A program made the position numbers and the translations under genes. Below are positions 3,842 through 57,307 of a stretch of 64,000 bases of DNA, in pieces (within the stretch, counting starts at the first letter, position 1; the number at the start of each line of letters is the position of its first letter). Under the pieces are notes generated by a model, which did no database searches, was not told the DNA's origin, and saw only the letters and a program-made list of their open reading frames with translations. The stretch comes from Callorhinchus milii. Taxonomy: Eukaryota. Where the stretch lies: the NCBI RefSeq assembly GCF_018977255.1, contig NW_024704742.1:36830001-36894000 (forward strand). The letters run 5' to 3'.

Positions 3842-4246
3842 GAAAACAAAAACAGAAGTCGCTGAGAACACTCAGCAGGTCAGGCAGCATCTATGGAGAA
3901 AGGAAAGTGAGTCAATGTTTCGAATCCACGACCCTTTGTCAGAACTGGAGCATGTTGGGAGGGAGAGGCTTTTAAGGGTTAACAGAGAGCGGGGAGGCAG
4001 GGCAAGGAAGACAAAGAAGAAAATGGGGTAGAGGACAGGGGATGACGGGTTAAAGAGGTGTTAATGATGCAAAACAAAGGGAGGGATTGCAACAAAACAG
4101 GGGGAAAGAGGTGCAAGAGGTCCCAACGTGCCTCAGTTCTGACGAATGGTCATAGACCCGAAACGTTGACTCACTTTGCTTTCTGACCTGCTGAGTGTTC
4201 CCAGCGATCTTTGTTTTTGTTTCAGGTTTTCAGTATTTTGCATTTT
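3842..4246. mobile_element. Penelope-like-derived element with inverted arms (3842-3947 and 4134-4223), each carrying a hammerhead-like motif
   Basis: Arms are reverse complements (cagttctgacgaa...gaaacgttgactcacttt...ctgacctgctgagtgttcccagcga...tgtttttgtttc) around a purine-rich spacer. PLE assignment is inferred from the hammerhead motif and inverted arrangement. Confidence 0.7.
4135..4171 (+). ncRNA. Minimal type-I hammerhead ribozyme motif (stem II base mismatch)
   Basis: AGUU-CUGACGA-A-UGGUC AUA GACCC-GAAA-CGUU-GACU; stem I AGUU/GACU; conserved core; putative GUU cleavage site after 4167. Confidence 0.6.
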
Positions 4247-38372: not shown

Positions 38373-38554
38373 TATACAATAAATAGTCTGGTTTCTCCTC
38401 AAAACTGTCCCTTTTTCACTTAAGCGATGTAAAAAAAAATGTTTGGTTAGCCAAGTATCTGACACATGCAGAAACCCATCATCATGCTTAAGAGGATCCA
38501 AACTAGGTTTAAGAGCTGCACATAACACCGTAAATGCCACCTGAATATGAATAT

Positions 38555-38868
38555 GGAGTCCTGTAGCTTAGCGGTTAGAGCACTCGCCTCACAAGCGGGA
38601 GACCTGGGTTTGATTCCCGGGCAGGGCGAAATATTAGGCAAGTGTTCTTACTCCACACACCTGTTTACCCCTACTTTACAAATACAAATAATAATTTGGT
38701 CACTGAATCCATGATTGTTTGTGGGACACTACTGTGTGCAATTCGCTGCCGCGATTCGCCCGCTAGATATAGAATCAATTTCTTTTACAGTAGATTCTGT
38801 GAAGCGCTTTGAGACGTCCCTATGTGTAATAAGGCACTATATCAAATGCAAGGATTGTTATTACTACT
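38555..38868 (+). mobile_element. tRNA-derived SINE (family A)
   Basis: GGAGTCCTGTAGCTTAGCGGTTAGAGCAC...GGTTTGATTCCCGGGCAGGGCGAAA head; (TTA)n-type tail. Confidence 0.88.
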
Positions 38869-38940
38869 TATTATAATGTGATGGAGGTTCTGCTACATTT
38901 CAGGGATTTTAGCATACCCGAAGACTCACCAGTATGATGA

Positions 38941-39267
38941 CAATAATAATAATAACAATAATCCTTGCATTTGATATAGCGCTTTTCATGTTGGGAGGAC
39001 GTCCCAAAGCGCTTCACAGAACACACTGTAAAGTGAATTGACTGTATATTTGTGGGCGAACGCGGCAGCCAATTGCGCACAGCAATGTCCCACAAACAGT
39101 CGCCGATTGAAAATGACCAATTTATTATTGTTTTTGGTTTTTGGAGGGATTATTATTAGGCTCTGTGTGGAGTAAGGAAACTTGCCCAAGGTTTCGCCCT
39201 GCCTGGAATTGAACTCAGGTCTCTCACTTGCAAAGCGAGTGCTCTAACCACTGAGCTACAGGACTCC
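38941..39267 (-). mobile_element. tRNA-Ala(TGC)-derived SINE (family A)
   Basis: Reverse strand reads GGAGTCCTGTAGCTCAGTGGTTAGAGCACTCGCTTTGCAAGTGAG; anticodon loop TT-TGC-AA; same body and tail as other copies. Confidence 0.88.
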
Positions 39268-40194
39268 AATGCCATTTCACTTGGGGCTCTTTATACAACT
39301 TACATATGGCAACATTCGAGTCTGGTAGCAATAGCCTTATTCAGATTCCTATAAACACTGCTCCAAGATCCTCGTCAGTGAATGTGTTTCATTGTAATTT
39401 GACCCCATCGATAAATGCAATGATCAGTGAATGTAATATATATGGTAAGAAGATCATGTTCAACTTGGCCAGCACCCAGACTCAATTTAATCCACCGTTT
39501 AATGCAAAGCATTAAATATGCTGGCAATAACGACCCATCTGAAACTGCACGTCTCACAATGAAAAAATTTCAACTGCCTTTATAATCTTTCCAGGAAGAA
39601 AAATTAGTGATCGGAGAAGCTTGTTTTATTTTAAATTGAGAAAGTTGCTACAGCTTGCAAATGGATGTTGCAAGGGTGTATGTTCGCAGAATTATAGAAA
39701 GTTTAAAGCACATAAGTCGTTCATTCAATCCATTCCATCTCCCACTGGAGCAATCTTCTCCAGGCATTTCTCCCGGTGTTCTGGCCAAAAATCCTTTAGA
39801 TAAAATTGATCATTCACTTCATGGCTGTATGTGGGACATTGATCTGTGTAAACTGACTGCTACATTTACCTTCAAAATACACAGTCACTGCACTTTACAG
39901 TAATTCTTGTGAAGTGCTTTGAGGTGTACCCTGATGGGAAAGGTACTATTTCAAATGCCAGGATTATTATTAATACCCTAATAACATGCTAAAAATGGCC
40001 CATGTCCAGATGATCAGGTTATCTCTGATGTCACATAAATTATAGCGACCTGGTGACTCAAAAATTCTCAATTTTTAATGCTTAAAAGGCCCGCCTGCCT
40101 TTTGAATCAAGACGTTTTCAATGCGCAAATGCACAGTAAACGCAGGAAGGTTGACAGACAATTGTGCCCTGCTAAAATGCGAGGTGGGATTTTA

Positions 40195-53438: not shown

Positions 53439-55286
53439 ACAAATAGAATTAGAAAGCGACCTTTGTTGAAGTTATACAATTGACTGACTCTAAGATAAAA
53501 CATTAATATGCATAATTGAGTTTCGCTGGAAGTTTAGATGAGGGAATTAATTTGATAGTGTTAAATTACTTGTTAATCCTGATTCTCACTCAACAAAATC
53601 TCCATGTTATAATTACTGAGAAATAAACTGAAAAATACTTTTGTATTTAAAGAGGCATCAAAAAGCCTTTCAGCTATCTGTTCAATAGAAATTCATTGTG
53701 ATAATAATTGTAAATGTATTCAGCTTTTCAAATTGGAAATACCTGTATATATTTTAATTGGTTTATACTGTGTGTTATCACAGATGCCTATTTTATTTTA
53801 AATTCAATCTGAACCTTTATTTGCATTGTACAGTGCTATATTTGAATACATACCCAAATTAATCTTCAGATCAAATTATCCATGTACAAACTATGCTCTA
53901 TCAGCCCCATTTAATAATTGTATTAGACACACAAGCAGAACTAGCAATGGAGCCATGAGATTAAATGTCTTGCCCAAGAATGTGTTCTTGACCTTGCCAT
54001 CTGTCATTATTATTCTTTTCAGAGCTACAAATATTAGTCTGGAGGTTGGGAAGGAGGGGTTAATGCTTCGGGTATATTTTCTTATGTGTAGAAAAGTAGT
54101 GAACTTTCATCTTTTCTGCTGCTTGGGGAGGAGGGAGGGGTATAAGCAAAAGAGTCTTCTTTGTAGTCTAGCGAAAAGGATGACAATTATTGATGACTTT
54201 AGAGAGGCACTGAACTTGGTGCTGTATGATCTTGATTTATAGCTGGGCACCTTTAACTAACAACCACACTCAGGGTCAGCAATGACAGAGAAAAATGCCT
54301 GGTTGTCTTTAAATGGGAATTGTTTTCATGAAAAAGGGAAGGAAGAGAAAAAGCCATTCCCCAACCATTCACCGCTCACCATTGTCATCCTGGTGATGCC
54401 ATGGGTAGGTAAACATTGGTTCTTTCATTGTGATTTACATTATTACTATTATTATCATATTGTGTGCAAGGAAAGGAAAATATTTTGACAAACTTTTTTT
54501 CACAAAGTTAAGGCCCCTTTAACAACAACAACAAATTAAATTTGTATATCGCCTTTCACATCAGGAGGACGTCCCAAAGCGCTGAAATGTCACAGTATTG
54601 CAGTCCTGCTTTATGCAGGTCATTTTTCATTCTTCCTCATAAAACAGATGTTCTATTTTTTGAGAGGATTCACTGCAGTCATCTGTTAGTGCAAGTATAT
54701 CGTGTCTGCAATATTTTTTCACTTTGGGCTGTGATTTTCATTGTTTTGATCTGGGGTTTGATGGACTTACTGCTGTAAAGAGATGATGGCTGCTCTGTGA
54801 CAGGATCTGAATTGTTGTCTTTTGTGCTGCAACAGCAATGGGCCTTTCTGTGTTGCCCTGGTTTCCATAGGATGTATCATTTGCATAGAAGCATGCCAGG
54901 CTGGTTCCTACAGCTTTGCGTAACTAGGGACTGAAAGCTGATGGTTCAGCACCTGGAGAGAAGGGGTTACATTTATGATGAGCTTTCGTAGGAAGCTATT
55001 TGTCTGGTTGTTATGGGTTTGTTTGGAAAACTAATCTCTGGCAGGAACAGGAAGCAATGTGGGCACAATTGGGGAATTAATCAAGCACCTTTAAACTTAA
55101 CAGGATATTGGTGAAGACTGCTCTGTCTGCAGTGTTAGTTAATGGCGTGAGACTATACAGACATAATAATAATAATTGTTCATTTGATTTAACTCCTTAT
55201 GATGTTGTCGAATCGATTCAAAGTACGTCAGCTTTTCGAAAAGAGAAGGGAGTTTCTCCCAGAGTCCTGGCCAACAAGCCCCAAAT

Positions 55287-55452
55287 AAAATGCAAAATAC
55301 TGCAGATGCTGTTAGTCCTTAAAAGCCTCTCCCTCCCAACATGACCCAGTTCTGACGAAGGGTCGTAAACCCGAAACGTTGACTCACTTTCCTTTCTCCA
55401 TAGATGCTGCCTGACCTGCTGAGTGTTCCCAGCGACTTCTGTTTTTGTTTCA
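55287..55452 (+). mobile_element. Penelope-like repeat fragment nested in a Deu-type SINE
   Basis: 55317-55451 is the near reverse complement of 3842-3977; host SINE sequence resumes after 55452. Confidence 0.7.
55348..55384 (+). ncRNA. Minimal type-I hammerhead ribozyme motif (intact core)
   Basis: AGUU-CUGACGA-A-GGGU CGUAA ACCC-GAAA-CGUU-GACU; stem I AGUU/GACU; stem II GGGU/ACCC; palindromic ACGU stem III; putative cleavage after 55380. Confidence 0.72.
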
Positions 55453-55719
55453 AACCCCTAAATTAGATTGGTCATTCGCTTCATGGCTGTTTGTTGGATA
55501 TTGATGTGCACAAGTTGGCTGTTGTGTTTGCCTGTAAATATACAGTCACTACACTTTATAGTAAAAATTCCAAAGCATTTTGAGACATTTTGACAATGTG
55601 ATAAGCTGTTATATCAAATACAAGGAGTATTATTATTATTTCTACTGAGTGTTTGTAGGCAAATGCAGCAGCCAATGTGCATACAATAGTGTCCTGAAGA
55701 CAGGCATGAAGTGAATTTA

Positions 55720-56000
55720 AAAAATCCTTGCATTAATATCATGCCTTTCAAGTCAGGATGACGTCTCAAAGCTCTTCACGGGATTTTACTGTAAAGTGTA
55801 GTGACTGTGCATTTTGTAGGTGAATTGTTGGTCAGGGCACCGAGAGAAACATCCTTCTCTTTTCGAATGGTACTGTGGGATCTTTAACATGCAACAGATT
55901 AGGCAGATGGGACCTTGGTTTAGTGTCTCATACGAAGGACAGCACCTCAGACAATGCTCTATTCCCTCAGTACTATACTAGAGTGTCAGCCTGGACTATG
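55720..56000 (-). mobile_element. Deu-domain SINE (family B)
   Basis: gggatctttaac...ggcagatgggaccttggttt...ccctcagtactatactagagtgtcagcctgga. Confidence 0.72.
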
Positions 56001-57219
56001 GATCAAAATATAGATGGGGGAGCCCGGAGAATAACATGAGAGTGTAGCCGTCCATCAGTTGTCGGAGCTTTCACCCTCTATCAGCTTGTTTCACACTTCA
56101 AGCTGGGTTCCCAGCTGATCTCAGAAGTGATAGACACATGCAAAGACATCAGATCTGTGGAAGAAATCTCTTGGCTCCTGCACTGCGGGGAGCAAGCAAT
56201 CATATTGTCACCCACTGAAATGATAACATTACATAGAATTACATATATTTGTATGACAGGAAGCTACAATGATAATTGACTTCTGTGAAAGCTTTGTCCA
56301 ACAAATCTATTGAGTGGGAGCATCAGAAAGACTTATAGAGGAAGAAAGGAGCAACTGAGACTTGACTGAGTTTATCTTATTGGGGGGAAGAGTTTCCCTC
56401 ACACCTTATAGTTTACATTTCTTATTAATTTGCCTTTACCAGGGCACAAGTGCTCAGACAGCCATTTGACTAATATGTGTAGAATACCTTGCTTCAGTTT
56501 GGATGTAGAGGTAGGATGGCTGTTGGTTATTTTTAATCTATTGGAAGACTGCATAAAGCACTACAGCAAACACACTATGATGTCAAGCCCATATGTTAGA
56601 TGAGAATCATAACCAACAGTTATTTTCAAGGACGCAGTTTTCACAGTTTACATTTCACAGTAATGTGAAAAAGAAGGGAATTGGGATTCAGAATGGTTAG
56701 CTCAAACGAATAAGGTGCCACCTGTTTAGGATGGAATGGCCAATTCCTGTACTGTAATTTCTCTGTTCCTTGTTCAATCATTGTTAAAAGTACAATTTAT
56801 AATGTTGAGTGCGGAGAAATGGCAGTAAAATAAAAATTGTATAACATCACCATTATGAAAGGACATTAGCAGCATAACTAATTTTCTTAAGCTTTAAATC
56901 TACCAAAGGGGAGGTGAGGGGTGTTGGGGGGAGTGTTAGGGTAGGAGGAGGGAGGAGAAATACGTGATGTGATGTGATAATTTCCCCCTTTGCTTTGACA
57001 CCATTGACTTTGTGAGGCGGAGATATTTATTATATCTCACCCTGGTTATAGCAGACTGCCTCTGATCGCTGGAGGGATTTGAAGCAGTGGGCACAACAAA
57101 TTATTTTTCAATTACTTGCATTTTTGACACATTAGCACAACCTGCCGCTTGGTTCACTGGTAGACACCCTGCTCCCATGTGACGCCCGATTCACTGATCC
57201 CGTGTGCTCTGTTTCACAG

Positions 57220-57307
57220 GGGACCATTTTCTTGCCTGGAAATAAAGTCACGGAGCATTCGTACAATGGAGATGAGGCGAGAAAGTTCCTTTTCGAGATT
57301 GTGGCAG
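57220..57307 (+). CDS. ARHGAP24: Next coding exon of ARHGAP24; C-terminal part of PH domain
   Basis: Translates GTIFLPGNKVTEHSYNGDEARKFLFEIVA(G), continuing in frame from ...RPL. Acceptor tgtttcacAG at 57218-57219; branch-like CTGAT at ~57194; GTAAGG donor at 57308; 88 nt, ends phase 1. Confidence 0.92.

Follow-up and report, generated by a model that had tools for sequence, protein, structure and literature searches.

A minimal hammerhead motif lies in a truncated retroelement fragment

The window, by which we mean the whole 64,000-nt stretch of Callorhinchus milii DNA analyzed here, contains a minimal type-I hammerhead motif (min-HHR), a 5'-truncated fragment of a Penelope-like element (PLE) that surrounds it, two further copies of the same PLE 3' end, and a downstream exon of the host gene (Table 1). 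By direct reading, the plus strand at the motif is AGTT CTGACGA A GGGT CGTAA ACCC GAAA CG T T GACT, and the core boxes, stems, extra A, GUU triplet, and ACGU palindrome that a preliminary description had claimed are each present at 55348-55384. Stem I consists of 4 bp with a U·G pair adjoining the core, stem II consists of 4 bp capped by a 5-nt loop, and the ACGU that runs from A15.1 to U16.1 (55376-55379) is self-complementary. The cleavage triplet is GUU, which is less usual and less active than GUC. An ATG near the motif, at 55341, is followed by a stop after 4 codons, and no ORF starts inside the motif.

Table 1. Coordinates of the motif, its parts, the repeat copies, and the host exon in the 64-kb window
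Feature	Position	Strand	Basis or remark
Minimal type-I hammerhead motif (min-HHR)	55348-55384	+	Sequence reading, descriptor match, segment parse
Stem I, 5' strand AGTT; 3' strand GACT	55348-55351; 55381-55384	+	
Core CTGACGA (C3-A9)	55352-55358	+	
Extra bulged A between A9 and G10.1	55359	+	
Stem II, GGGT; ACCC	55360-55363; 55369-55372	+	
Stem II loop CGTAA	55364-55368	+	
G10.1; C11.1	55360; 55372	+	Paired, closing helix II at the core
GAAA (G12-A15.1)	55373-55376	+	G12-A14 at 55373-55375
A15.1; C15.2 G16.2 U16.1	55376; 55377-55379	+	
U17; G1.1	55380; 55381	+	
Predicted scissile bond, linking U17 to G1.1	55380-55381	+	Hammerhead numbering only
5'-truncated PLE 3' end, tail-less "short" class	55309-55453	+	Genome repeat matches
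Inverted 25-nt PLE 3' tail piece, directly adjoining the truncated copy at its 5' side	55287-55311	-	Match to the tail of locus L007
Second copy of the same PLE 3' end, decayed hammerhead	3845-4113	-	G8 to A, 3' strand of stem II altered, ACGU to ACAU
Third, shorter copy	4121-4221	+	Core boxes kept, G10.1 to T, 15-nt deletion downstream
Host-gene exon encoding a PH-domain piece	57220-57307	+	Acceptor ...tttcacag/G and donor CAG/gtaagg, both canonical

Our own descriptor specified CUGANGA, a bulge of 0-1 nt, a stem II of at least 4 bp with a loop of 3-10 nt, GAAA, a palindromic insert of 0, 2, or 4 nt, UH, and a stem I of at least 4 bp. When both strands of the window were searched, the motif was the only match, and 200 first-order-Markov simulated windows gave none. 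The min-HHR sequence at this position is genuine and non-random. A search with the Rfam Hammerhead_1 model, which the preliminary description had proposed as a check, was negative, as cmscan with the Rfam 15 hammerhead models returned no match at E<=10 for either a 3-kb input (54000-57000) or a 71-nt input (55330-55400). Since these models expect a helix III hairpin, which is absent here, the miss does not refute the motif.

Including the inverted tail piece, the retroelement fragment extends over 55287-55453, or roughly 165 bp, with a PLE part of ~145 bp that is without an ORF. Similarity to other genomic copies runs from 55309 to about 55453, and most of those copies continue upstream for variable lengths, which is the pattern of a 5'-truncated retroelement. 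The reverse complement of 55287-55311 agrees with the tail of locus L007 at 24 of 25 positions, and the same inverted tail piece is found beside two other copies of the PLE 3' end. The window copy departs from the family's majority base at three positions, two private G-to-A changes at 55367-68 and one change at 55344. Because of the two private changes, stem II is 4 bp long, compared to 5 bp with a 3-nt loop in the commonest form of the family (e.g., L026:1539-1575).

The second and third copies of the PLE 3' end in the window are arranged head-to-head, 7 nt apart, and the one on the plus strand is ~51 kb from the 55348-55384 motif. Within the 64-kb window, no intact partner motif was found, as these two copies are changed at G8 (minus strand) or G10.1 (plus strand). 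Another interspersed repeat of ~320 bp lies on both sides of the PLE fragment (55232-55294 and 55456-55640). This repeat recurs across the window, for example at 38554-39271, and a segment within locus L065 matches its copy at 38949-39271 with 96% identity. Since contigs of other ~320-bp repeat copies join both flanks without the PLE piece, the PLE fragment seems to have inserted there. The sequences CCCCAAAT at 55279-55286 and CCCCTAAAT at 55456-55464 may represent a target duplication around the insertion.

The exon places the motif in a sense-strand intronic context, and its start puts the predicted cut 1,840 nt upstream of the 3' splice site, which agrees with the earlier claim of a sense-strand position 1.8 kb before that site. 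When the exon translation was compared to PDB sequences, the sole match was 1v89, "KIAA0053" (E=0.021), which we take to be ARHGAP25, a paralogue of ARHGAP24. Judging by its sequence, the exon would fit the ARHGAP22/24/25 group. Many copies of the repeat are represented in contigs from four sequencing runs that we guessed to be RNA, and some contigs span 55380/55381, although such contigs have no power to show RNA ends, strand, or level. We rejected an approximately tenfold step in summed depth near 55369-55376 as a signal, as it falls where alignments are clipped and where the window copy has its two private bases (55367-68).

Longer copies of the repeat encode a reverse transcriptase and a GIY-YIG-like endonuclease

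With 201 nt around the motif as the query, a search of the genome from which the window comes (1762 contigs, 991 Mb) gave at least 2123 first-look candidates for the motif-bearing 3' end. Of these candidates, 40 were scored and gave 44 matches, of which 40 span ~140 nt at 94-96% identity and 4 are shorter at 91-98%; the window copy is ~96% identical to other copies. Candidates dwindle toward the 5' end, from at least 2123 for the 3' end to at least 672 for the endonuclease region and at least 142 for the reverse transcriptase (RT) region, and the copies share a common 3' end while their 5' ends vary. Upstream of this end, the longer copies contain frames for a Cys-rich linker and a GIY-YIG-like endonuclease, with RT motifs further upstream.

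On the decayed frames of this family (family 1), Pfam matches to GIY-YIG (E=0.13) and RVT_1 (E=4.8e-4) were both under the cut-off, and since Pfam is weak on decayed ORFs, the PLE identity rests on homologues. Of 2353 candidate proteins for a 358-aa RT frame (P0001), 124 matched at E<=0.001, many with precomputed RVT_1 and some with GIY-YIG annotations, and the best named match is an uncharacterized shark protein at 60% identity. An 806-aa homologue (P0010) scored 25.0 bits for GIY-YIG against a cut-off of 22.6 and 29.4 bits for RVT_1 against a cut-off of 29.6, and a second homologue (P0003) passed for RVT_1 at 32.9 bits. The C-terminal frames of family 1 aligned to residues 647-794 of P0010, a span that takes in its GIY-YIG match, at 45% (E=9e-24) and 40% (E=3e-7) identity. 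Canonical PLEs are described as having this order of domains, an RT with a GIY-YIG endonuclease on its C-terminal side (PMC8557442). Because the longer copies encode an RT plus GIY-YIG, we identify the flanks of the motif as a PLE 3' end. The earlier assignment of the motif to PLE minimal type-I hammerheads is borne out by these proteins together with the published min-HHR sequence traits that the motif displays.

The family also shows the insertion hallmarks of PLEs, namely a shared 3' end in copies truncated at differing 5' points, an optional tail, an inverted piece at a 5' junction, and a head-to-head pair. The tail of ~33 nt is present in 14 (long) and absent in 13 (short) of the 27 classified copies, and the window copy belongs to the short class. 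Frangieh et al. 2024 (PMC11167929) describe an optional tail of 30-40 bp as particular to PLEs and attribute it to RT initiation at either of two internal sites, and Craig et al. 2021 (PMC8557442) report that PLE insertions may carry a tail at one end or the other and may have inverted, 5'-truncated copies beside them. Within the parent element, ~330 nt separate the end of the RT-endonuclease ORF from the motif, and another ~70-105 nt separate the motif from the element's 3' end, so that in tandem elements it would be upstream of the next ORF. An upstream walk through family 1 reached neither a complete element nor an upstream repeat, and in the two near-full-length family-1 copies examined a motif-bearing repeat was not seen at both ends, as it is in published PLE min-HHRs (PMC4209133).

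The hammerhead architecture recurs in a second PLE family with different stems

We counted the motif genome-wide with two patterns. The strict pattern, in which the family stems and core are fixed and only N7 and 3-7 central stem-II/loop bases are free, gave 263 exact matches compared to 0 for its reversed control, and the loose pattern (CUGANGA, N, G, 8-26 nt, C-GAAA-CGU-H) gave 4296 compared to 32. Our own descriptor found 16 matches in 87 fetched loci (286,114 nt), all of them in the window's PLE family.

Divergence was measured from the majority base in 38 copies that had been picked by their ORF regions and thus blind to the motif. CpG dinucleotides take in 8 of the 37 motif positions, and these diverged at 0.355, while non-CpG divergence was 0.084 in the motif and 0.088 in the flanks. 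This equal divergence indicates that the inserted copies show no sign of selection and decay neutrally, as dead copies should. A first set of 28 copies appeared less diverged because it had been picked by similarity to a motif-containing query and was therefore biased. Identity within the family says nothing about function.

The informative comparison is between families. A second PLE family in the same genome (e.g., locus L091, G000 contig C235:11850-12750, minus strand), with 30% protein identity to P0010, retains open frames of up to 825 aa, mostly on small contigs. Its motif reads TTCAC CTGAAGA C GGCTGC TTGCGTT GTAGCC GAAA CG TC GTGAG and is located in the spacer that separates two tandem ORFs, 76 nt before the start codon of the downstream one. 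Both families have the same boxes, a bulged nucleotide (C in family 2), the G10.1-C11.1 pair, ACGU, and a UH site. Family 2 has a GUC triplet, and its stem I and stem II sequences are wholly different from those of family 1 with pairing kept. As read from the sequences, this covariation of the stems between two families is the sole sign of constraint that we see. The exact family-2 pattern had 122 matches, nearly all identical and almost all on small unplaced contigs. Same-strand family-2 motifs are ~3.0-3.2 kb apart, consistent with tandem elements in which pseudo-LTRs would flank the ORF, and many close opposite-strand pairs occur as well. Family 2 looks much younger than the window's family. 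A third RT-like match (L093, G000:C12:9529650-9530350, minus strand) has 37% identity to P0010 and a 629-aa open frame; this frame stays open through the 701 nt retrieved upstream, in which no hammerhead was found, and L093 may be a different kind of element.

Predicted folds of the motif favor inactive structures

The ViennaRNA-predicted preferred fold of the 37-nt monomer has an energy of -8.3 kcal/mol and pairs core positions G5-G8 with CGUU, compared to -5.7 for the hammerhead-like fold. By the same nearest-neighbor energies, which leave out tertiary contacts and protein help, a double hammerhead is at -9.5 kcal/mol versus -16.6 for two free monomers. In the predicted fold of the whole fragment, the 5' strand of stem II pairs with an upstream ACCC instead. 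The resulting alternative hairpin at 55341-55366, in which ACCC (CCCC in most copies) pairs with GGGU, is the predicted minimum-energy structure and would block the hammerhead; on these models, it could be due to chance or could represent a built-in off-state.

The motif resembles the min-HHRs of PLE terminal repeats

According to the published survey, every PLE examined, fish elements included, has min-HHRs in its terminal repeats (Cervera & de la Pena 2014, PMC4209133). They have a helix I of 4-5 bp, a conserved G10.1-C11.1 pair, and a palindromic 15.2-16.2, they number in the thousands, most of them lone copies left by truncated elements and others paired on opposite strands, and their in vitro cleavage is low and confined to dimers and trimers (PMC4209133). 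The window motif shares with them the type-I box order, a 4-bp helix I, one base left unpaired between A9 and G10.1, the pairing of G10.1 with C11.1, a palindromic 15.2/16.2 without loop 3, and an occurrence in thousands, mostly as solitary truncated copies with occasional opposite-strand pairs; at the family level, it shares the location in the terminal region of an RT plus GIY-YIG element. Four of these traits are not imposed by the descriptor of that survey (PMC4209133), namely the extra A9/G10.1 nucleotide, the G10.1-C11.1 pair, the palindromic 15.2-16.2, and the presence of many copies in consensus families, and all four were found in the motif or its family. Since every descriptor-independent trait of PLE min-HHRs is present, the motif is of a kind already known. 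Helix II, which has 5 bp in the common family form and 4 bp in the window copy, is shorter than the 7-8 bp of Schistosoma and the 6 bp of Drosophila (PMC4209133).

Among vertebrate elements, Anolis carolinensis Poseidon (PAc; PMC11167929) is likewise an RT plus GIY-YIG PLE with an optional tail and a hammerhead without a stable helix III. In PAc, the ORF starts inside the hammerhead, whereas no ORF starts in the window motif and the family-2 ATG is 76 nt downstream. Newt satellite 2 and avocado sunblotch viroid form double hammerheads (Forster et al. 1988), which also have an unstable helix III and are active only as two copies. These have a helix III of 2-3 bp with a small loop, longer stems, and loop-loop contacts, while the monomer of the window motif is without helix III and has a 4-bp stem I without a visible loop 1.

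Animal non-LTR retrozymes also carry type-I hammerheads related to PLE terminal repeats and are reported from cartilaginous and bony fishes, amphibians, and reptiles (Cervera & de la Pena 2020, PMC7229834; Li et al. 2026, preprint, 10.64898/2026.07.22.740005). The latter lists a cartilaginous fish among the species with PLE-related hammerhead repeats and describes retrozymes as under-represented in introns (10.64898/2026.07.22.740005). Retrozymes are short tandem units that give rise to circular RNAs, whereas the window locus is a single truncated PLE 3' end. We rejected a non-LTR retrozyme identity, as there are no head-to-tail units, only one descriptor match in 64 kb, and the other plus-strand copy is ~51 kb away.

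Dimeric self-cleavage is the probable role of the motif in its parent element

We are highly confident that the motif is a PLE terminal-repeat min-HHR, contained in a young, 5'-truncated, non-coding fragment in an intron of an ARHGAP22/24/25-type gene. By analogy with the published model, its role in the element is probably dimeric self-cleavage. Under this model, a lone copy would be unable to form helix III, while two copies, joined in one tandem or multimeric transcript or meeting in trans, would pair by the self-complementary ACGU and swap their stem I strands. In the double hammerhead so produced, cleavage of each strand on the 3' side of U17 would give 5'-OH and 2',3'-cyclic phosphate ends. 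The element's protein would probably assist this cleavage, by which the element RNA would be trimmed out of longer transcripts. The window copy itself would be a passenger relic, most likely with no effect on the host gene.

It is conceivable, though in our judgment rather unlikely, that the PLE motif serves mainly as an RNA structure for the element's protein, in recognition, packaging, or priming, with its boxes kept for that purpose or for a weak side activity. In the Anolis study (PMC11167929), the PLE hammerhead cleaves only with the element's protein, catalytic mutants had no effect on in vitro insertion, for which cleavage is dispensable, and no RNA-seq reads end at the site; the predicted energies are likewise against the active fold. 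However, our two families differ in their stem sequences and agree in exactly the catalytic boxes, the UH site, and the G10.1-C11.1 pair, as would be expected of a ribozyme. For the Anolis element, C3/G8 mutants are also reported to abolish cleavage and a compensatory double mutant to restore it, and fungal PLE hammerheads are described as cleaving efficiently as monomers (PMC4209133, PMC11167929). A chance match to a permissive descriptor that was then amplified by the repeat would be in keeping with the shortness of the motif and its 4-bp stems, with the Rfam models giving no score, and with identity within the family being the result of recent amplification rather than selection. We nevertheless consider chance extremely improbable, given the 0 descriptor matches in the simulated windows, the excess of loose-pattern matches over the reversed control, and the unrelated PLE family whose equivalently placed motif has the same architecture but other stem sequences. 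In addition, three published traits, namely the nucleotide inserted after A9, the ACGU palindrome, and the pairing of G10.1 with C11.1, are not imposed by our own core boxes. We favor a min-HHR that probably acts as a dimer in its parent element.

The intronic copy is unlikely to affect the host gene

The preliminary description had implied that the "intact" motif is of special interest for the host gene, an emphasis that does not hold up, as the motif is one of 263 pattern-intact copies and the fragment around it is dead and 5'-truncated. On the present models, the window copy is unlikely to cleave the host pre-mRNA, since the window contains no second intact copy, only 4 bp would be available for helix III, inactive folds are favored, and published activity is low. 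Like the amniote intronic hammerheads HH9 and HH10 of Rfam, the motif is on the sense strand of an intron. HH9 and HH10 have a stable helix III and tertiary loop contacts and are conserved at orthologous loci. The window motif, unlike them, has no stable helix III and no Rfam model match.

Under an alternative that we rate as very improbable, the intronic sense copy would cut the pre-mRNA together with another copy or with PLE RNA and thereby lower or gate the expression of the ARHGAP-type gene. No core position and none of the three core CpGs has been lost from the copy, the exon begins 1.84 kb further along the same, transcribed strand, and the 263 pattern-intact genomic copies could be potential trans partners. 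On the other hand, it is an ordinary, ~96% identical member of a young repeat family in which inserted copies decay neutrally, two of its three differences from the majority base shorten stem II from 5 to 4 bp, and the 64 kb contain no intact partner. A 4-bp intermolecular helix III would, moreover, be very weak, as pairing in trans would amount to 4 bp plus the 4-bp stem I, and the published dimer activity is low (PMC4209133). We give still less credence to a general version of this idea, in which sense intronic min-HHR relics would be dimerization-gated pre-mRNA cut sites where PLE RNA pairs in trans via ACGU and stem I exchange. If true, retroelement expression would be coupled to the down-regulation of genes with intact sense copies.

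The motif is an ordinary by-product of a very abundant, well-described PLE retrotransposon and is no gene-specific ribozyme. Its main value is for annotation, where such motifs should be masked as PLE-derived before claims of gene-specific ribozymes are made. A genome-wide analysis of intronic strand bias among intact versus decayed copies could show whether such motifs harm host transcripts, and the presence of a large decayed family and a nearly uniform young family in one genome would make this a convenient vertebrate for the question of min-HHR cleavage in vivo. The motif class was described in 2014, with thousands of copies in fish, amphibian, and reptile genomes, and a further example carries little weight as it stands. 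With ~4,300 loose-pattern matches, this genome is comparable to those of coelacanth and Xenopus, for which thousands of copies are reported (PMC4209133).
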